Position numbers and translations under genes: made by a program. Shown piece by piece: positions 4,185 through 21,659 of a stretch of 26,739 bases of DNA (positions within the stretch are counted from its first letter, which is position 1; every line of letters begins with the position of its first letter). The notes under the pieces were generated by a model. That model was not told the origin of the DNA. It did no database searches and was given only the letters and a program-made list of their open reading frames with translations. Origin of the DNA: a virus (taxonomy: Duplodnaviria > Caudoviricetes); the IMG/VR virus record IMGVR_UViG_3300025886_000131, positions 1 through 26,739 of that record, one strand, 5' to 3'.

Positions 4185-4220
4185 TATATTATCTATTGTT
4201 ATTCGTGTTAGTTTTGTAAA
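4185..4220 (-). promoter_or_regulatory. Class I promoter-like motif
   Basis: TTTACAAAA-N5-ACGA-N9-GATAATATA on the minus strand, upstream of the SSB-like gene. Confidence 0.7.
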
Positions 4221-4222
4221 CA

Positions 4223-4963
4223 TTATAATGTCTGCTGAACTAGGTATTGAGCTGGGTCAAAGTCTTTATCTTTATAGAATAATCTATACTGATCTATCGC
4301 TTGCTCCACTTTATCTTTACCTCTTTCTAAAAACTGAGGAGAACAATCGAATATACCTATATTACCAGTTAATTTATCCGCTGTTATGAATATCATATCC
4401 ATATCAAAGTACGTTGAATAAATGTAGGCCTGGCTGTCATAGTTATACTCTTTTGCACTATAAGCGAATTTATCTAAATTAGATGTTGTTTTAAGATCAA
4501 CCACTAATTGTTGTGTGTTATTCTTAATATCGCCTTTCAGTTTCCACCATTCACCACCTAGTTCTAATACTCCTGGCACTTCGTATTCAACATCAATATC
4601 TTGTATTAATTCTTGACATACTTTGTTAGCCATTAGCTTATCCCTTAAGACGGATAATGCATCCGCTTCTTTCTGTAATAAACACATTTTACCTTCTGAT
4701 AACTCTTTATATATTTTAGAGTTTCTAGTAGATGCATCTATTATTTTGTATTGTTCCAGTTTGTCTGGTTCAAGTACTAATGTATGAAAATAACCACCTT
4801 TTACTAAATTTGGATTACCTTCAATAGGTTTTTTGAAACTAAGTGGATCTCGCATTAAAGACCTTATATCTGAATTGCTTAAGTACTGTTTTCCAAAATC
4901 TCCATAATAATCGTCGTCATTCTCTAATCTTTTTAAAATTTCTAGCTTTTCTGTTTCTGTCAT
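4223..4963 (-). CDS. PD-(D/E)XK exonuclease (RecE/ExoVIII-like)
   Basis: LSNSDIR, GGYFHTLVLEP, KGDIK...VVDLKTTS, YDSQAYIY; adjacent to the ERF gene. Confidence 0.8.
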   Translation of the reverse strand: MTETEKLEILKRLENDDDYYGDFGKQYLSNSDIRSLMRDPLSFKKPIEGNPNLVKGGYFHTLVLEPDKLEQYKIIDASTRNSKIYKELSEGKMCLLQKEADALSVLRDKLMANKVCQELIQDIDVEYEVPGVLELGGEWWKLKGDIKNNTQQLVVDLKTTSNLDKFAYSAKEYNYDSQAYIYSTYFDMDMIFITADKLTGNIGIFDCSPQFLERGKDKVEQAIDQYRLFYKDKDFDPAQYLVQQTL

Positions 4964-5472
4964 AAAGTTTTTAGTATTTCAGCAGGTATTTCATACTTCC
5001 CTTTAATAGCTTCTAGACTTCCCCCTGCTTTTAGGAAAGCTTTAGCTTTTGTTAATGCTTGACCTTCTAATTTAGGCTTCACAGATTCTTTCTTACCGTG
5101 ATCTGCGTCTTGAGTGTCATCAATTAAGAATAGATTCCCTAACGCATATTTTTTACCATAACTAGAAGCACTACCGAATTTCTGCGGCATTTGCATACCC
5201 TTCTGAAGTAGATCTACTCCAACAACAGCTGTTGCATGTATAGCATCTACGCCGTCAGTAATAGTAGCTTTAGATTCTAGTATAGGAAAATCAGTGTTAG
5301 ATATTAATTCTTCGCTGATCGTTACCGATACGCCTAGTCTTAATAAAAAAGGTTTTGTTGCTTCAAGGATGTCTTCGGCGGACCTGAAGTTGTACTTGCC
5401 GAAAGAGTTAAATCTACTTTTTTTCGATTTGAACTCGGTTTGGATTGTTGCTAATTTTTCGTTTAATTTCAT
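4960..5472 (-). CDS. ERF-family single-strand annealing protein
   Basis: KSRFNSFGKYNFRSAEDILEA and GSASSYGKKYALGNLF motifs. Confidence 0.85.
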   Translation of the reverse strand: MKLNEKLATIQTEFKSKKSRFNSFGKYNFRSAEDILEATKPFLLRLGVSVTISEELISNTDFPILESKATITDGVDAIHATAVVGVDLLQKGMQMPQKFGSASSYGKKYALGNLFLIDDTQDADHGKKESVKPKLEGQALTKAKAFLKAGGSLEAIKGKYEIPAEILKTL

Positions 5473-5544: not shown

Positions 5545-6303
5545 TTAAAGATAATCAAGCACTTGCGTTGGGTCTACAGAGTCAATTAGTTTTTCTATAG
5601 CCTGCTTTTTAAGCTCTGAAACTCTCACATATCCGCTTGGTCCTTTAAAGTTTAACTCTTCAGCTATAGCTTTACCTGGCATTTTATCGCAGTCTAAACC
5701 GTAGCTTAAACGCAATACCTCATACTGAATATCTGTTAGATATTTTTTACATAAGCCAGTCAAGTAAGTATTCATCAACGCTATATTGTAAGGCTCTGAC
5801 GTGTCAGGTATATTCTCAGACCATTTCTCAGCAGTATCAGAATCTATATCTATACTTTTGAATACGGAATTAAAGAAGATAGCTACTAACGCTTTGTCCT
5901 TGCCAAAATCTTTTTGGATCTCGTTTAGCTTGTATTCAGGGATTCTCATATCGCCTCTATTAATGTTTATAGCGCGTCTAATTGTTCCTTTAATACGTTT
6001 AGCTAAGAATGATTTAATTGTCTTCTCAGGGTCGTCAGATTCAATCACTCTGTTAATATCTAGCTTATCAACCGCTTTAATTAAACCTATAGATCCTTCT
6101 TGTATTAAGTCATTAATACTTAGCACTCCGGATGCTTGATCAGAAGTTGAAAACTTTCTTGCTATATTTTCTACTAAAGGTAAAAACTTAACTATAAGTT
6201 CATCTCTAGTATACTCATCCCAAAACTTACCTTCTAAATTATATATAGATTTTTTTACGTCTTCTTTGTATCTTATATAGTTTTGTATATTATACTTCTT
6301 CAT
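5545..6303 (-). CDS. Phage-encoded RNA polymerase sigma-70-family factor
   Basis: Region 2 LPLVENIARKF...DLIQEGSIGLIKAVDK; region 4 EVLRLSYGL...AIAEEL...RVSELKKQAIEKL. Confidence 0.88.
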   Translation of the reverse strand: MKKYNIQNYIRYKEDVKKSIYNLEGKFWDEYTRDELIVKFLPLVENIARKFSTSDQASGVLSINDLIQEGSIGLIKAVDKLDINRVIESDDPEKTIKSFLAKRIKGTIRRAININRGDMRIPEYKLNEIQKDFGKDKALVAIFFNSVFKSIDIDSDTAEKWSENIPDTSEPYNIALMNTYLTGLCKKYLTDIQYEVLRLSYGLDCDKMPGKAIAEELNFKGPSGYVRVSELKKQAIEKLIDSVDPTQVLDYL

Positions 6304-6484
6304 ACTCGTCTATTATTTTAAAGGCTTTCGCCATTCTATTGTCATCAGCATAGTATATATTGCCGATCTTTGCCATCCACTCGTTAAATTCCTGTGTCAT
6401 AGTTGGTGGTATTGTATCATTATTGTCTTGCCAAGTGTCGGCATAACAATCAAAGTTATTTTCAAATATTTGTCCTATATCCAT
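6290..6484 (-). CDS. Hypothetical protein
   Basis: 64 aa ORF overlapping the sigma start, same strand. Confidence 0.5.
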   Translation of the reverse strand: MDIGQIFENNFDCYADTWQDNNDTIPPTMTQEFNEWMAKIGNIYYADDNRMAKAFKIIDEYEEV

Positions 6485-6606
6485 AATTCTATTTATTTTA
6501 ATCCGTTAAAAAACTAATCTTACCCAAACCGTTGCACAGATCTACTATCTATTTATTTAATACACAAGCTTTTTTTACTTTATTTCATCACCAACATTAA
6601 AACGTT

Positions 6607-6657
6607 GGTCAACAGTTGATAAGAAGCATTACACGCTTTCTTATCTTGGTGTTAGCC
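6607..6657 (+). repeat. attC-like site 1
   Basis: GGTCAAC agtt GATAAGAAGC..GCTTTCTTATC ttggt GTTAGCC; one extra unpaired base in the stem. Confidence 0.65.
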
Positions 6658-6867
6658 ACAATTAATTAATTCTATTAATCTATCTGCAAGCCATTCTTGG
6701 TCTTCGTGGTCTTCTATGTATTTAAGGTCAACTTCTTTTAATTCTGTAATTAACAGTTCACGTTGTTGGCTAACATCAAATAAAACCAATAACTCATCTA
6801 CTGCTTCTTTAGGTTCTAAATGTCCACTTTCAACTTTACCTACTATTTGTTCAAATTTATCTTTCAT
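6652..6867 (-). CDS. Cassette-associated hypothetical protein
   Basis: Starts in the loop of site 2, crosses GTTAGCC (LFDVSQQR) and stops on the TAA of GGCTAAC. Confidence 0.6.
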   Translation of the reverse strand: MKDKFEQIVGKVESGHLEPKEAVDELLVLFDVSQQRELLITELKEVDLKYIEDHEDQEWLADRLIELINCG

Positions 6868-6900
6868 ATCGTTACTTGTTTTATCTGTATTACGTTAGGC
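6768..6900 (+). repeat. attC-like site 2
   Basis: GGCTAAC atc AAATAAAACCAATAAC..GTTACTTGTTTTATCT gtattac GTTAGGC (13/16 complementary). Confidence 0.65.
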
Positions 6901-7056
6901 AACATATACTTCTGTGTATGTTATTGCAATAAACGGTATTAAGTAAATCTTACTTTTAAATTTGCACTCTCCTTTTACACCTACATTACTTTTAACATAT
7001 CCAAAGCCTACGTTAAAAATTGGACTAAATGTTATTTGTTTGTCTACTAATTTCAT
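6895..7056 (-). CDS. Cassette hypothetical protein (53 aa)
   Basis: MKLVDKQITFSPIFNVGFGY...TEVYVA, bounded by GTTAGGCAAC/GTTGCCTAAC; stop lies inside GCCTAAC. Confidence 0.6.
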   Translation of the reverse strand: MKLVDKQITFSPIFNVGFGYVKSNVGVKGECKFKSKIYLIPFIAITYTEVYVA

Positions 7057-7065
7057 AATTACGTT

Positions 7066-7160
7066 GCCTAACAATGGCTAAAGTTAATAGCCTCGCAAGG
7101 TCTTGTTATAATTTGATGGTTAATATTAAAGGCTACTAACCTTAGCCTCGTCCGATAAAA
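7066..7160 (+). repeat. attC-like site 3 (degenerate core)
   Basis: GCCTAAC aat GGCTAAAGTTAATAGCC..GGCTACTAACCTTAGCC tcgtcc GATAAAA (15/17 complementary). Confidence 0.6.
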
Positions 7161-7210
7161 AACATTAAAACGATTTTTTATACTATACGTTGTAAAACAT
7201 TAAAACGATT

Positions 7211-7461
7211 TTACAACAAAGTATATAAATAATGCTACATTCCGTAACTATCATCCATCATCTTTTCAACCGCTTCCATTCCTTTAATAATTTTCTTAAA
7301 TGGTTCATCTAATAATTTTGGGTCTAAATGAAATATATGACCGTATTCCTCTATCTTGTAATAGAAGTCAATTATTTCACTCATTTCCGCTTTCTTTATT
7401 TCTCTTATATCTGACATATCGTTTTATTTAATCCGCACTATTCATATACTAAGCGTTATAT
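7211..7461 (+). repeat. attC-like site 4 with an ORF in its loop
   Basis: TTACAAC aaa GTATATAAATAATGC..GCACTATTCATATAC taagc GTTATAT (13/15 complementary). Confidence 0.65.
7235..7417 (-). CDS. Hypothetical protein (60 aa) inside the loop of attC-like site 4
   Basis: ORF track; lies between the two arms. Confidence 0.6.
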   Translation of the reverse strand: MSDIREIKKAEMSEIIDFYYKIEEYGHIFHLDPKLLDEPFKKIIKGMEAVEKMMDDSYGM

Positions 7462-7671
7462 GCAATTAAGCAAATCCGTTTCTATTTGGTTTATTTCGTC
7501 AAGGGTTCTGTTCAATGGTAAGTACTTTCTATGTGGTTCGTTATTAAGGTTGTCAATTTCAAACCACTTCCATTCATAAATCGCATCTTTAGGGTCTTTA
7601 TAGTTAGGTGGTACAAATTCATTTTGCTCATCCTTAACACCCCAAAGTCCGTTCTTTTTAAATAATTTCAT
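7456..7671 (-). CDS. Cassette hypothetical protein (71 aa)
   Basis: Likely start MKLFKKNGLWGVKDE; bounded by GTTATATGC/GCATATAAC; stop lies in the TAAC box. Confidence 0.6.
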   Translation of the reverse strand: MKLFKKNGLWGVKDEQNEFVPPNYKDPKDAIYEWKWFEIDNLNNEPHRKYLPLNRTLDEINQIETDLLNCI

Positions 7672-7690
7672 TTCAAAATTGCTTAAAAGC

Positions 7691-7785
7691 ATATAACACC
7701 GTATATAGTTTATATGCCTAGTTAATATTCGTTTTAATTCAAAGTGTAGTTTAATGGCACACAAACCATATACAACACGTTGTAA
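7691..7785 (+). repeat. attC-like site 5
   Basis: ATATAAC acc GTATATAGTTTATATGCC..GGCACACAAACCATATAC aacac GTTGTAA (15/18 complementary). Confidence 0.7.
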
Positions 7786-7789
7786 ACAA

Positions 7790-8038
7790 TTACATACCGT
7801 TGTATATTTGGTGCATTTTTACTGCTTCATTTCCATAACCATTAATTGCTAACTTATTTGCCAACTTAAATACTTCGGTATGCAACTGCTCGCTATCGCT
7901 TTCACAACTATGCGTATAATTAATAGCTTCTAATAGCTCTTTTGCAATGTCAGTTATGTCTTCTTGTCTAAAAAAAGAACAGTTATTCTCATTAAATCCG
8001 TGTTCTTCAAATATATTTATTATTTTTTGTAGTTCCAT
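7790..8038 (-). CDS. Cassette-associated hypothetical protein
   Basis: Starts in the loop of site 6 and crosses the arm and GTT box (AINYTHSC). Confidence 0.6.
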   Translation of the reverse strand: MELQKIINIFEEHGFNENNCSFFRQEDITDIAKELLEAINYTHSCESDSEQLHTEVFKLANKLAINGYGNEAVKMHQIYNGM

Positions 8039-8094
8039 TTTTGTTAATTTTAATTATTATTCAACGCTACTAATCATACACTTTCAAGTTGTAA
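7902..8094 (+). repeat. attC-like site 6
   Basis: TCACAAC tat GCGTATAATTAATAGC..GCTACTAATCATACAC tttcaa GTTGTAA (13/16 complementary). Confidence 0.65.
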
Positions 8095-8098
8095 GTAA

Positions 8099-8290
8099 TT
8101 ACAAGCGTTCTATTATTTCATCTAATTGGTCAGTGTTGTGTAATTGGCAGTTATTATAAGCGAAATCCTTTAAATCTTCAACCGCTTGTAACTTCCCTTC
8201 GGTATTGCTAACAACGGGTAAAATTAATTCTTTAACTACCTTTATAAAAGCCTCCTTAGTCATTGCCATAACAACATCGCCATCTACCAT
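8099..8290 (-). CDS. Cassette-associated hypothetical protein
   Basis: Crosses the half-site at 8206-8227 (LILPVVSN). Confidence 0.55.
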   Translation of the reverse strand: MVDGDVVMAMTKEAFIKVVKELILPVVSNTEGKLQAVEDLKDFAYNNCQLHNTDQLDEIIERL

Positions 8291-8907
8291 AGTTGTTGGT
8301 TTAGTAATTCTTTTTCTTTTTTAAGTTCATTACTCATGTTTCTATATATAGTTCTGCTAGAACACTTTAAAGTTTCAGCTAACTTAACCATAGTTATAAT
8401 TTCGTTTTCGTGGTTAATAAAAATCATAGCATCGTATATTTCACTGCTGGATATTTTAGATCTACCTACTAGCTTACCTACTATAGAGAGCTTTTGTCGC
8501 ATATCAAGACCGCTATAATCCTTAAAGATTACTTTACGTAACTTATTAGGAGGAGGTGTTTCGAGATCCATTAAAGACACATCGTATATCATGCTTTGTA
8601 GTAGTTGCTCTGAAACTTTAAACGTAACAAATCCTGCTTTCTTATTACATATATACTTAGACATCGCTTCAAAGCCTTCTTGATCCATCTGAGGATTCAA
8701 GTACCATAATACATACAAATGCCATTTAAGACTCCTATATGTATTGATTTTAGCTTTAGAATTAAATAGTGTATAGCATTGACGTGTACCCGCTTCGTAG
8801 TAATTACCCCAATCAAATACTTCTGTTGGTTTGTCATCTACTGGATCACATCTATAGAATATCCTATGACGATCTAAATATGATGTATCTCTTGTATAAT
8901 GCGACAT
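8284..8907 (-). CDS. DNA-binding protein with C-terminal helix-turn-helix
   Basis: ITMVKLAETLKCSSRTIYRNM HTH pattern; start codon lies inside a 52 bp palindrome. Confidence 0.65.
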   Translation of the reverse strand: MSHYTRDTSYLDRHRIFYRCDPVDDKPTEVFDWGNYYEAGTRQCYTLFNSKAKINTYRSLKWHLYVLWYLNPQMDQEGFEAMSKYICNKKAGFVTFKVSEQLLQSMIYDVSLMDLETPPPNKLRKVIFKDYSGLDMRQKLSIVGKLVGRSKISSSEIYDAMIFINHENEIITMVKLAETLKCSSRTIYRNMSNELKKEKELLNQQLW

Positions 8908-10971: not shown

Positions 10972-11007
10972 TATATTATCGATAAGTGATCGTGTTAGTT
11001 TTGTAAC
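10972..11007 (-). promoter_or_regulatory. Class I promoter-like motif
   Basis: GTTACAAAA-N5-ACGA-N9-GATAATATA. Confidence 0.7.
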
Positions 11008-14894: not shown

Positions 14895-14993
14895 TTATTC
14901 TTCATCTTCGTCAAATTCCGCCCACTCTAGGCAATCACCGCATCGATCGGAGTTCAGTAAACTTGGTTCCGCACCGCAACAATTACTCCACAT
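14895..14993 (-). CDS. Small Cys-rich zinc-ribbon-like peptide (32 aa)
   Basis: MWSNCCGAEPSLLNSDRCGDCLEWAEFDEDEE. Confidence 0.6.
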   Translation of the reverse strand: MWSNCCGAEPSLLNSDRCGDCLEWAEFDEDEE

Positions 14994-15303
14994 CGGTAGA
15001 TAGTATTTCACCTAAATGTCTCACATTCGAAGGTAGATTAGTACTTTGACTCCAGTAACCGCGTTTCAACCAATTAGGTAGGATATTTAGTTTAGGTAAC
15101 ATGACCTTTAATACCTCATCGTGATTGTATTTTATGGTTTGACCCTTGTTATTGGTGAAAGTGATTTCTTGATTTCGACCGTACCACGACTTCCGAACTA
15201 CGAAGTTTTTACGTGTTATTGGTGGAAATACCGCTTTTAGTTGTTCCGGTGTTAACTCTTTTAGTAGTTGTTCTTGAGTTTTAATAGTTTGTTCAGTAGA
15301 CAT
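14983..15303 (-). CDS. Hypothetical early protein, paralog of 16248..16565
   Basis: Shared FPPI.RKNFVVRKSW.GRNQ.ITFTNNK and KRGYWSQSTNLP.NVRHL. Confidence 0.8.
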   Translation of the reverse strand: MSTEQTIKTQEQLLKELTPEQLKAVFPPITRKNFVVRKSWYGRNQEITFTNNKGQTIKYNHDEVLKVMLPKLNILPNWLKRGYWSQSTNLPSNVRHLGEILSTDVE

Positions 15304-15357: not shown

Positions 15358-15393
15358 TATATTATCGAACGGTGTTCGTAACGGTTTTGTAAA
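15358..15393 (-). promoter_or_regulatory. Class I promoter-like motif
   Basis: TTTACAAAA-N5-ACGA-N9-GATAATATA. Confidence 0.7.
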
Positions 15394-15680: not shown

Positions 15681-15716
15681 TATATTATCAATACCTCGTC
15701 GTGTAGGTTTTGTAAA
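15681..15716 (-). promoter_or_regulatory. Class I promoter-like motif
   Basis: TTTACAAAA-N5-ACGA-N9-GATAATATA, abutted by TGCTATACGC. Confidence 0.7.
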
Positions 15717-16180: not shown

Positions 16181-16216
16181 TATATTATCAGTTGTTATTC
16201 GTAATGGTTTTGTAGG
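16181..16216 (-). promoter_or_regulatory. Class I promoter-like motif
   Basis: CCTACAAAA-N5-ACGA-N9-GATAATATA. Confidence 0.7.
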
Positions 16217-16247: not shown

Positions 16248-16565
16248 TTATTTAGACCCCTCCGTTGCATCTGCAATGTCTGCTAGATGTCTAACATTAG
16301 TTGGCAGATTAGTTGACTGTGACCAGTATCCGCGCTTGATCCAGCAAGGCATTATGCTTAGTTTCGGCAACATCGCTTCAAGTATCGTATCGTGATTGTA
16401 TGTTACGACTTGGTCTTTATTGTTCGTAAAGGTAATGATCTGGTTGCGTCCGAGCCATGATTTTCTGACTACAAAGTTCTTGCGATTGATTGGTGGGAAG
16501 ATTAATGCTTTTTCTTCATTAGACATTTTTGCGATTGCATTGGTAATTAATTCTTGACTGTTCAT
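16248..16565 (-). CDS. Hypothetical early protein, paralog of 14983..15303
   Basis: High amino-acid similarity to 14983..15303. Confidence 0.8.
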   Translation of the reverse strand: MNSQELITNAIAKMSNEEKALIFPPINRKNFVVRKSWLGRNQIITFTNNKDQVVTYNHDTILEAMLPKLSIMPCWIKRGYWSQSTNLPTNVRHLADIADATEGSK

Positions 16566-16609: not shown

Positions 16610-16645
16610 TATATTATCAGGTTGCAGTCGTGATGGTTTTGCAAC
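16610..16645 (-). promoter_or_regulatory. Class I promoter-like motif
   Basis: GTTGCAAAA-N5-ACGA-N9-GATAATATA. Confidence 0.7.
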
Positions 16646-16867: not shown

Positions 16868-16903
16868 TATATTATCAGTAGCCGGTCGTAGTAGTCTTGT
16901 AAA
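16868..16903 (-). promoter_or_regulatory. Class I promoter-like motif
   Basis: TTTACAAGA-N5-ACGA-N9-GATAATATA, abutted by TGCTATACGC. Confidence 0.7.
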
Positions 16904-19861: not shown

Positions 19862-21415
19862 ATGTCAAACCAAATTGTAAAAAATCTCACCTTCGGTGAG
19901 AAGGCAAAGACCAATGTATTTAAAGGTATCGAAAAGCTTACAAAAGCTGTTAGTTCTACCTTAGGAGCCAGTGGAAAATGCGTATTACTAGAAAACGAAT
20001 TAGGTAAACCTGTTATTACCAAAGATGGTGTAACGGTTGCAAATTCAATAACACTTAGAGATCCTATTGAAAATATGGGTGCAACGCTTCTAAAGGAAGC
20101 AGCTAGGCAAACTGTTAAAGAAGCTGGAGATGGAACCACAACAGCTACAGTCTTAGCTCACTCAATATTATTAGAAGCATACGCTGCTAAAAACAGTGGA
20201 TCAAGGGAAATGAAGGAAGGTGTCGAATCGGCTACTAAAAAAGTAATTGAGTATCTAGAAAAGCTAGCGGTACCTGTTGAAGGAGATATGGTAAACCATG
20301 TTGCAACAATTTCTTCTAACAACGATAAAGAGCTTGGTAATGTTATTGCTGAGGCTTTTAAACAAGTGGGTAAGAATGGAGTTGTTACTATGGAGGTTTC
20401 AAATGATAGCGAAACAAGTTACGAAGTAATAAATGGAGCTGCAATAGATAAACCTTTAAAGAACTTCCACTTTATCACAGACGAAAGTAAAAAAGAAGCT
20501 GTACTTGAAAATCCATTAGTATTACTAGTAGAAAACAAAATAGAAAACATACGTAAGATACAAAGTGTTTTAGAGTATGTTATAAAAAACAATGAGCCTT
20601 TATTAATTATTGGCGAAGCAGATGAGCAAGTAGTATCCGCTTTAGCTATGAATAAAAAGAAAGGTAATATCAAAGTCAATATTATTGACACTCCTGACTT
20701 TGGAATATACAGAAAAGAAAAGCTTCAGGATATAGCTCTCTTAACAGGTGCTACGGTCGTGAATGAAGACCTTGGTGATGACTTAGATATGATAGAGGTA
20801 GAAATGCTAGGAAAGTGTTTAAAGTCCATTACAAACGACCAGGAGACCATTATACAAGTAGGAGATACATCTATTAAAGTTCAAGAAGTTATCGATTCGA
20901 TACAAGATGACATTAAAAAAGAAACTTTACCAGGTAAGCTTAATAGATTAGAAAAAAGATTAGGTTTATTATCTTGTAAAGTAGCTGTTATAAAAGTAGG
21001 TGCAAGCTCAGAGGTTGAGCTTAAAGAAAAGCAAGATAGAGTTGAAGATGCGATGTGTGCTACAAAAGCTGCTATTAAAGAAGGTATTGTACCAGGTGGT
21101 GGTATTGCTTTATTAAATGCTTCTACTTATGTTAAACCAAGCAACGATAATGAAAAAGTTTTACTAGAAGCTATTAAAGCGCCTTATTTAACTATACTAA
21201 AAAACGCTGGTTTAGAAGAAGTATATCCGAAAGGAAAAGGCAAAGGAATTAATGTAGTTACCGGTAAAGACGTTAATATGATTAAGTCTGGTATTATTGA
21301 TCCTTTATTAGTTACTAAAAGCGCATTAAAGAACGCAGCATCAGTAGCTACAACTATATTGTCAACAGATTGTGTAATCAACAACTTAAGAGTAGAAGAT
21401 GAAAGCAATAGGTAG
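19862..21415 (+). CDS. groEL: Chaperonin GroEL (phage-encoded)
   Basis: ITKDGVTVA, AGDGTTTATVLA, GIVPGGGIAL, GIIDP..V..SAL.NAASVA. Confidence 0.95.
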   Translation: MSNQIVKNLTFGEKAKTNVFKGIEKLTKAVSSTLGASGKCVLLENELGKPVITKDGVTVANSITLRDPIENMGATLLKEAARQTVKEAGDGTTTATVLAHSILLEAYAAKNSGSREMKEGVESATKKVIEYLEKLAVPVEGDMVNHVATISSNNDKELGNVIAEAFKQVGKNGVVTMEVSNDSETSYEVINGAAIDKPLKNFHFITDESKKEAVLENPLVLLVENKIENIRKIQSVLEYVIKNNEPLLIIGEADEQVVSALAMNKKKGNIKVNIIDTPDFGIYRKEKLQDIALLTGATVVNEDLGDDLDMIEVEMLGKCLKSITNDQETIIQVGDTSIKVQEVIDSIQDDIKKETLPGKLNRLEKRLGLLSCKVAVIKVGASSEVELKEKQDRVEDAMCATKAAIKEGIVPGGGIALLNASTYVKPSNDNEKVLLEAIKAPYLTILKNAGLEEVYPKGKGKGINVVTGKDVNMIKSGIIDPLLVTKSALKNAASVATTILSTDCVINNLRVEDESNR

Positions 21416-21659
21416 AAACTTGATAATAAAGATCATTAAAGAAGCAACTACTAAAACAAAAGGTGGTTTAATACTTAATGAAAAAAGTAGAGAAGATATA
21501 AGATATCGTAAAGCTACTATTGTATCCGTTGGAACAGATGTTGAAGGTGTAACGAAAGACGATACAATCTATTTTGACAGAAACGCTGGACACGGAATAG
21601 AAATAGACAACGAGAAACTACACGTTATAAAGAATCAAGATGTAGTAGTCGTATTATGA
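21399..21659 (+). CDS. groES: Co-chaperonin GroES
   Basis: KTKGGLIL mobile loop, ATIVSVG, cpn10-like size; adjacent to groEL. Confidence 0.9.
   Translation: MKAIGRNLIIKIIKEATTKTKGGLILNEKSREDIRYRKATIVSVGTDVEGVTKDDTIYFDRNAGHGIEIDNEKLHVIKNQDVVVVL

Follow-up and report, generated by a model that had tools for sequence, protein, structure and literature searches.

A circularly permuted array of integron-like hairpin cassettes in a tailed-phage genome and the Xer-like recombinase that likely serves it

How does a chain of integron-like gene cassettes come to lie in a phage genome with no integrase nearby, and what moves its cassettes? The question is raised by a 26,739-nt stretch of viral DNA (Caudoviricetes; IMG/VR record IMGVR_UViG_3300025886_000131, here G000), referred to below as the window, which is a fragment of a tailed-phage-like genome whose record covers the window only. 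An interpretation made from its letters alone (the sequence-only reading) had placed six attC-like hairpins at 6514..8227 and suggested a shuffled array recombined in trans by an IntI-like enzyme. It is considered probable here that a permuted seven-cassette array of 1,890 bp entered the phage as a circle at an 8-bp match, and that its cassettes are processed as folded single-stranded DNA by a Flavobacteriaceae Xer-like recombinase. The shuffled attC-like array and the action in trans are retained from the earlier proposal and IntI is given up, and the element, by its empty-site joint, extends from 6398 to 8287. A permuted insertion at a microhomology, starts of open reading frames (ORFs) within hairpin loops and a second joint on the GTT side are features that the earlier account did not contain.

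Anatomy of the Hairpin Sites

The array lies on the minus (coding) strand between a helix-turn-helix (HTH) gene (8284-8907) and a sigma factor gene (5545-6303). Read on that strand, the site plan is AAC, 5-6 nt, left arm, loop, right arm, 2-4 nt and GTT. All six hairpins described previously were found, most of them by a detector far above shuffled controls, with AAC-to-GTT spans of 6611-6653, 6772-6896, 7070-7156, 7215-7457, 7695-7781 and 7906-8090; a seventh, overlooked site is split between the array ends (arms 6505-6525 and 8216-8236). Over 6450-8300 the detector returned four sites at a score of at least 13 (mean 0.017, maximum 1 in 300 dinucleotide shuffles) and five at a score of at least 9 (shuffle mean 0.42, maximum 3); the six coding-strand sites are far above chance. 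Site 3 was missed because its left box is ATC, and a scan of the whole window gave only one further match per strand. The features of the array are listed below in coding-strand order, with spacers given as the lengths after AAC and before GTT.

6398..8287, minus strand: circularly permuted array of seven cassettes and a 35-nt relic, a 1,890-bp insertion (joint 6397 to 8288)
8288..8295, minus strand: 8-bp direct repeat, upstream copy; contains the start codon of a resident small phage gene
8210..8287, minus strand: split site, second half (loop remainder, right arm 8236-8216, 3-nt spacer, GTT 8212-8210)
8099..8290, minus strand: 63-aa ORF, second part of the split cassette's gene, started from a phage ATG and reading through GTT
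7906..8090, minus strand: site 6, 16-bp arms, spacers 6/3; the 82-aa ORF starts in the loop
7790..8038, minus strand: 82-aa ORF, begins in the site 6 loop and reads through GTT
7695..7781, minus strand: site 5, 18-bp arms, spacers 5/3, loop non-coding
7456..7671, minus strand: 71-aa ORF between sites 5 and 4; stop overlaps TAAC; no family found
7215..7457, minus strand: site 4, 15-16-bp arms; an entire 60-aa ORF in the loop
7235..7417, minus strand: 60-aa ORF, wholly in the site 4 loop; homologues whole (control)
7189-7217, minus strand: empty 29-nt segment after site 4
7155..7189, minus strand: 35-nt relic, gives site 3 ATC instead of AAC; direct repeat at 35-nt spacing
7070..7156, minus strand: site 3, 18-bp arms, left box ATC; spacer plan and right-arm end as in P12002L_attC1 of Polaribacter phage P12002L
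6895..7053, minus strand: 52-aa ORF between sites 3 and 2; stop overlaps TAAC
6772..6896, minus strand: site 2, 17-bp arms, spacers 6/2; a 71-aa ORF starts in the loop
6652..6867, minus strand: 71-aa ORF, starts in the site 2 loop and runs in frame through GTT; homologues mostly half-matches
6611..6653, minus strand: site 1, short hairpin with one bulged base, spacers 5/4
6406..6533, minus strand: split site, first half (AAC 6533-6531, 5-nt spacer, left arm 6525-6505, loop start)
6398..6405, minus strand: 8-bp direct repeat CAACTATG (coding strand), downstream copy; 12 bp with one mismatch
6290..6484, minus strand: 64-aa fusion ORF, first 29 residues from the split cassette's gene and the remainder from the resident small gene

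The arms vary and remain complementary, as had been claimed: in a 7x7 pairing matrix the best partner of every left arm is its own right arm. Of the 105 arm pairs counted in the split site and five others, with bulged site 1 excluded, Watson-Crick pairing accounts for 89, G.T pairing on the minus strand for 15 and another mismatch for one, so that 15 of the 16 non-Watson-Crick pairs follow the bias noted before. Folding of both strands also agreed with the view that the minus strand folds better, the arm duplex being stronger there in 6/6 sites and the whole-site fold in 5/6 (site 1 is the exception). In a survey of 52 phage loci with 192 sites, window included, 446 G.T pairs were counted vs 98 other mismatches, and 170/192 phage sites, like 30/33 host sites, contain no bulge, totals that lean upward because the detector rewards G.T pairs and charges bulges; in the window only site 1 is bulged. 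The spacer plans 6/3, 5/2 and 5/3 account for 163/192 phage sites in a scan that allowed only 5-7 and 2-4 nt.

The ends of the segments between sites, which had been called self-complementary, pair at 5, 5, 5, 5, 4, 3 and 1 of the five positions after GTT; the complementarity expected of integron cassettes is therefore present in five of the seven (at least 4 of 5) and is poor in the other two. The boxes that close a single site had been thought unmatched beyond AAC/GTT and in fact pair at 1-4 of 5 positions (4 of 5 at site 2). Across the 52 phage loci, the two ends of a segment pair on average at 4.18 of 5 positions (n = 96), vs 1.88 for same-site boxes.

The aberrant box of site 3, GAT on the plus strand, was correctly recognized earlier, and site 3 has ATC on the coding strand because the 35-nt relic precedes it. 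The relic is missing in other copies (run X10 skips 36 nt there, and locus L143 joins the same neighbours through a normal AAC) and is likely a truncated mini-hairpin consisting of a left arm and a CGTTTTAATG loop. The window has this coding-strand loop three times (6595-6604, 7163-7172 and 7198-7207), within the relic and empty segments; P12002L_attC1 and other phages have it too, and it marks empty cassettes and mini-hairpins. In segments 7787-7908 and 8098-8192 an inner stem lies beyond the end boxes, after ∼12 nt unpaired on the 5′ side; the predicted fold of an excised cassette is a rod closed by loops at both ends. A site-like match inside the ERF gene (5141-5359; score 13.8, spacers 6/5) is probably due to chance. 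The Rfam covariance models assigned the hairpins to no RNA family, giving no match at E ≤ 5 across the whole window.

The Mobile Unit

Judged by comparison between loci, the cassette unit consists of a hairpin and the segment that follows it on the coding strand, and AAC is the point of its gain and loss. Loci L245 and L255 differ by one 280-nt indel of a hairpin plus segment, bounded by TAAC, between flanks of 2,298 nt and 614 nt with 99.3% and 99.8% identity, respectively. Unit 7455-7781 recurs with no differences inside longer contigs of runs X8 and X10 (one study) and at 86% identity in another gene context in L083, while unit 7187-7460 is found with two differences in run X7. L219 and L222 have a loop and segment in common and diverge after AAC, where all intact copies of that segment diverge, and site 6 is found alone, from AAC to GTT, in L086. 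The breakpoints anticipated at G/TT by the sequence-only reading are the same ones, since AA|C of the coding strand reads G|TT on the plus strand. A main crossover on the GTT side was also considered and was given up, since the breaks in near-identical copies fall at AAC.

In all pairs that share the upstream segment only, the 5-6 nt that follow AAC are wholly different. A search with a 15-nt right-arm pattern gave mostly loci without arrays. Ten loci from metagenomes were also compared, of which L221 and L227 matched by chance, L223 and L226 belong to the window's phage, and L220 and L225 duplicate other loci of the set.

The clean indel bears directly on a reading in which no site-specific enzyme acts in the phage, the hairpins being shared linkers, possibly RNA structures, between whose stems homologous or annealing-protein recombination shuffles the segments. 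Such shuffling would account for an insertion at an 8-bp match rather than at a site, for stems that belong to a few shared families and for a first segment that is a hybrid joined well after GTT, and ERF and exonuclease genes lie 1-2 kb away; the genes are also on the folding strand, so the mRNA would fold too. However, the 280-nt indel shares only the four nucleotides TAAC, unrelated hairpins stand directly after the same AAC, and Rfam is null. In the host arrays described below, moreover, the genes occupy the other strand while the same strand folds, which fits DNA rather than mRNA, and a recombinase heads those arrays. Shared linkers without an enzyme are accordingly regarded as improbable.

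Insertion Into the Phage

Eighty loci with the sigma gene were compared; two are the window's phage, and 74 of the other 78 hold both flanking genes. No cassette ORF match was found in these 74 relatives, in which the distance between the flanking genes ranges from a 10-nt overlap to 832 nt, vs 1,984 nt in the window. The comparison of relatives proposed earlier thus gives absence of the array from 74, and order changes are uninformative because only L001 and L002, identical to the window except for one base outside the array, hold it. In four of the eight runs examined (X3, X7, X8 and X15) a joint runs from 6397 to 8288, skipping 1,890 nt with eight ambiguous letters. A 3,071-nt contig of X15 (record 8) spans this empty joint with 19 differences in 1,111 nt, and therefore a sibling that is ∼98% identical has an empty site. 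The eight ambiguous letters are the direct repeat at 6398-6405 and 8288-8295, which includes the start codon of the resident small gene; in L003 that gene follows directly after the HTH gene.

The ends of the inserted DNA belong to one cassette. Arms 8236-8216 and 6525-6505 pair through 18 Watson-Crick and three G.T pairs, and their duplex (-13.3 kcal/mol) is far more stable than those of non-cognate arms (-2.6 to -6.8). In a 330-nt contig of run X13 (record 3, depth 4.9), 6526-6398 runs gap-free into 8287-8205, and in intact proteins (P0031-P0033 and 10 further cluster members) the first 29 residues of ORF 6290-6484 continue into the start of ORF 8099-8290. The intact DNA of the split cassette was absent from the viral contigs searched and was recovered from metagenome run X13. 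One site and one gene are thus cut in two, because the contig and the database proteins show both intact. The terminal arms had also been tried as transposon-like inverted repeats, a candidate dropped once the intact site and intact protein turned up. Both insertion joints yield in-frame fusion ORFs.

The array most likely entered by microhomology and not at its own sites, and the simplest and most likely reading of the permutation is that a seven-cassette circle joined the phage through a single crossover at the 8-bp match. The crossover was probably carried out by ERF, whose gene is 1 kb away; single-strand annealing proteins (ERF, RecT, Red-beta) give phage mosaicism at short matches, and the attribution draws on these general properties. 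The genes in question lie outside the array:

4223..5472, minus strand: genes for an exonuclease VIII-like protein and the ERF single-strand annealing protein, candidates for having carried out the microhomology crossover

The same final sequence would result without a circle if a longer linear array carrying the split cassette twice, in direct orientation, had been copied in through two crossovers at the 8-bp match. Two points favour such a linear donor: no free circle was observed, and the gene of the split cassette is a common one, with clusters of 10 and 2 members. A linear donor nevertheless needs a repeated cassette at exactly both ends and two crossovers instead of one, and none was seen among the loci or runs examined; it is considered quite improbable, and entry of a circle is preferred.

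The HTH-sigma junction is an insertion hotspot, and in L015, L028, L033, L055, L061, L071, L072 and L080 it holds differing, unrelated small inserts without hairpin sites.

Genes That Read Through the Sites

The ORFs had been placed on the better-folding strand, the reverse of the usual integron arrangement, and this holds widely: in phage arrays the longest ORF is on the folding strand in 92/98 units. Among these folding-strand ORFs, 48 cross GTT (27, 19 and 2 in the three frames), a count inflated by the many loci chosen for a read-through pattern, 16 lie in a loop and 28 in a segment.

As judged from their homologues, the halves of read-through genes have been reassorted across sequences. 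The 71-aa ORF at 6652-6867 has 39 homologues, of which 30 match the front only, seven the back only (one of them a fragment), one both and one neither. For the 63-aa ORF at 8099-8290, 27 of 32 homologues match the back only, and their fronts fall into 23 clusters. The control, the 60-aa ORF enclosed in a loop, retains both halves in 88/95 homologues at 50% identity and in 72/95 at 60%. The loop part of the 82-aa ORF occurs alone in L086 (AAC to just past GTT) and its segment alone in L087. Site pairs compared across loci share the loop only (eight pairs), the downstream segment only (11, six of them from loci chosen for that segment), the upstream segment only (nine), loop and downstream segment (one) or all three (one), and in six more one part is below scorable length. 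Breaks at GTT, with unrelated arms to its left, occur in some pairs (L243/L245 and L212/L218).

Near-identical copies break at AAC and the GTT breaks are not sharp; routine shuffling therefore keeps genes whole, and chimeras arise more slowly. In classical attC sites, according to the available text of PMC4792948, extrahelical bases favour one strand and block a second exchange, and by analogy the rarity of such bases here would allow exchange on the other side of the site. Homologous recombination in shared stems explains part of the GTT-side data too.

Host Arrays and the Likely Recombinase

The sequencing runs that contain the array come from marine metagenomes. Among cultured phages, only those of Cellulophaga, Polaribacter and Tenacibaculum show DNA similarity, and the site pattern matches only Bacteroidota genomes (eight records); because both are confined to this group, the phage host is taken to be a flavobacterium.

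Sites of the same family form chromosomal arrays in Polaribacter irgensii, Winogradskyella damuponensis and Microcosmobacter. Their genes are larger and run opposite to the folding strand in 22/23 units, the classical orientation, and each array is headed by a 374-403-aa tyrosine recombinase co-oriented with the genes. Relatives of this enzyme (E ≤ 1e-60) occur in 43/61 Flavobacteriaceae genomes. Thirty of the recombinase loci were fetched, and a site was detected within 1.5 kb downstream in 18 of the 22 with at least 1 kb downstream, compared with 0/29 upstream on that strand. A lone GTT box was seen by eye directly behind the recombinase in L280 and L282. No attI was found at the array head in the window, where the head is half of the split site.

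Five of these recombinases were tested on the integron integrase model TIGR02249, and all scored below its cut-off of 265 (179-219 bits), matching in two stretches; where IntI has its specific insertion, one aligned host enzyme has 30 residues vs 73 in VchIntIA. On NF040815 they reach 190-236 bits vs a cut-off of 220, and the catalytic domain of the aligned enzyme matches archaeal XerA gap-free (E 5.6e-44). About 95 extra residues precede it (model pLDDT 87). The model of this N-terminal domain had SMARCAL1 HARP as its first Foldseek match (E 0.093), and VIA-align ranked the N-terminal domains of XPB (Z 7.4, rmsd 1.7, 57 aligned) and UvsW (Z 7.3) first, with 4o66 at Z 4.3; the N-terminus had no match to HARP by sequence profile. 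The modelled domain thus bears a possible resemblance, at modest scores, to XPB-N, UvsW-N and SMARCAL1 HARP domains, which offers a lead. In P. irgensii (L280 13599-18770) the array recombinase stands, by eye, directly behind DnaE-like and DinB-like genes, which look like an error-prone DNA polymerase pair.

The claim that no integrase lies nearby is borne out in the window and in G001 and G002, two contigs of the same phage (58% and 32% complete): no recombinase was found in the 31 window ORFs, in these contigs, in three other array-bearing records or by protein search. Five further array-bearing phage records contain none above cut-off, nor was one found in two array-bearing phages that are at least 90% complete. 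The search for IntI that had been suggested thus found none in the phage as searched, and turned up host arrays headed by an Xer-like recombinase without the IntI insertion.

A classical cluster of attC sites lacking an integrase (CALIN), served in trans by a true IntI, would share the AAC/GTT cores, the complementary cassette ends and the one better-folding strand. Qi et al. (2023; PMC9892861, available text) reported 17 such clusters in phages, one of them in P12002L, and five of six phage-borne sites, P12002L attC2 included, recombined with IntI1. However, P12002L_attC1, a full member of the present family, failed in the same work, where the primer given for it corresponds to the folding strand, as does that of the aadA7 control. 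The present sites have a second spacer of 2-4 nt vs 5 in that control, 170/192 phage and 30/33 host sites need no bulge, and the linked recombinase falls short of TIGR02249 as given above. Service by IntI is therefore highly improbable, because the host recombinase lacks the IntI insertion and P12002L_attC1 fails with IntI1, and the likely enzyme is the Flavobacteriaceae Xer-like recombinase, tied to the sites by its position. P12002L attC2 looks like a right arm with a loosely chosen left box.

Two cultured phages appear suitable as bench models. In P12002L (L088 247-1920 and 7032-9960) eight sites were detected on one strand in the 18 kb scanned, and in Tenacibaculum phage JQ (L090 364-4516 and 38932-40475) 15, also on one strand; DNA methyltransferase genes are among the site-associated genes of both, and JQ gave no PF00589 match.

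Proposed Mechanism and Its Implications

The following course of events is proposed. A cassette, the hairpin and following segment of the coding strand, is gained and lost at AAC, as the comparisons indicate. During infection the coding strand would fold, and a host recombinase acting in trans would exchange one strand at AA|C, much as IntI does on the attC bottom strand, releasing circles of one or several cassettes. A circle would then cross into the phage inside the gene of one of its cassettes, probably via ERF, so that the site of that cassette ends up in two parts and two in-frame fusion genes arise. On a longer time scale, exchange of loops and downstream segments at or just after GTT gives new small proteins, and this would come about either through the same recombinase acting on the other side of the mostly bulge-less hairpins, through homologous recombination in the stems, or through both.

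Several observations weigh against this account. No variant of the array lacking a cassette was met on the same phage backbone in eight runs, among the matches listed. The spacer after AAC differs in 4/9 pairs with the same loop, which a strict AA|C unit does not predict, and two of the seven window segments have badly matching ends (1 and 3 of 5). On the GTT side, 20 of the 30 front-only homologues of the 71-aa ORF at 6652-6867 retain a common stem after GTT, so its breakpoint cannot be placed at GTT; same-loop pairs often have several common bases past GTT, and the window's first segment changes family well after it, which points to homologous recombination off the core as a probable cause. 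As to the enzyme, its link to the sites is one of position and recombination itself is predicted. The recombinase search of the window's phage spans 37 kb and a 63.6-kb contig exists, so that this phage may carry a recombinase of its own. In G075, a complete 69.8-kb phage (L288 4689-6744), a phage-type array is followed directly, on the same strand, by a short Xer-type recombinase that lacks the N-terminal domain.

A wider possibility, put forward tentatively and at somewhat less than even probability, is that Bacteroidota and their phages share an overlooked class of integron. Its recombinase would lack the insertion, and its bulge-less hairpins would be exchanged at both ends. Genes threaded through the sites would permit combinatorial protein building (loop leaders by segment bodies, in frame), and multi-cassette circles would enter unrelated lytic phages, the window being one such capture.

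For the small orphan genes of Flavobacteria phages the array offers a concrete source, namely cassettes, some of them built from two exchangeable halves. The linked recombinase lacks an insertion held essential for integrons in the available text of PMC8138268 and PMC4792948, and the need for both the insertion and extrahelical bases becomes testable. The locus also records, in an empty site, a joint and an intact donor site, the entry of an array into a lytic phage without an attachment site; such a route was only suggested by Qi et al. (2023), as far as the available text of PMC9892861 extends.

The Surrounding Phage Genes

Genes recognized in the window encode a primase-helicase, thymidylate synthase, exonuclease VIII-like protein, ERF, sigma factor, GroEL/ES, amidase and holin; both GroEL and GroES (19862-21659) are encoded by the phage itself. 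The cassette proteins match no Pfam or PHROGs family, and their ESM Atlas matches are below 0.9. An intergenic motif is present in seven copies (4186-4216, 10973-11003, 15359-15389, 15682-15712, 16182-16212, 16611-16641 and 16869-16899) and had zero occurrences in 100 shuffles. On the minus strand it terminates in GATAATAT and precedes minus-strand genes, and it is likely a phage early promoter. Two similar minus-strand ORFs of 105-106 aa (14983-15303 and 16248-16565), each behind a copy of the motif, are apparent paralogues as judged by eye.

Comparison With Known Systems

The resemblance to annealing-protein phage mosaicism lies in the insertion at an 8-12-bp match with an ERF gene nearby, and the difference in the acquired DNA, which is a permuted array of site-bounded cassettes. 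With Xer-type simple tyrosine recombinases, including archaeal XerA (4A8E, 5HXY; NF040815), the host enzyme shares an unbroken catalytic-domain alignment, whereas its ∼95 additional N-terminal residues and its place before a hairpin array set it apart.

Among phage-borne clusters, the array resembles a CALIN in having at least two attC-like sites and no integrase nearby (in a phage genome that is incomplete). The closest likeness is to P12002L attC1, which has 6/3 spacers, the CGTTTTAATG loop and the right-arm end of site 3, in an integrase-less cluster of a marine Bacteroidota phage. In PMC9892861 two P12002L sites were treated as classical attC, whereas the detector used here finds eight, and the available text of that paper describes no host array, insertion-less recombinase, reversed gene strand, permuted insertion or chimeric protein. 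No published description of this combination of hairpin cassettes and an Xer-like recombinase was found in a partial coverage of the literature. Bacteroidota are among the phyla with integrons (PMC8618304, available text), and the available text of PMC8138268 describes the IntI insertion as essential and as not fully conserved in an integron-like subgroup.

With integron cassettes and their attC sites (PMC4792948, as available) the likeness is extensive. Variable hairpins with an AAC/GTT core, complementary cassette ends and one better-folding strand are common to both, as are the crossover at AAC of the folding strand, where IntI cuts attC at AA|C, stops that overlap TAAC and a recombinase heading the chromosomal arrays. 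The differences are that spacers here are 5-6/2-4 nt, the second of them not matching canonical attC (6 and 5 nt on the bottom strand in the aadA7 control), that extrahelical bases are mostly missing, that phage ORFs lie on the folding strand and read through GTT, and that loops of up to ∼200 nt or more carry gene starts or whole genes. The linked recombinase differs also, in lacking the IntI insertion, in its extra N-terminal domain and in being co-oriented with the cassettes. The array works like integron cassettes, and departs from them in its extrahelical bases, its spacers, the gene strand in phages and IntI.

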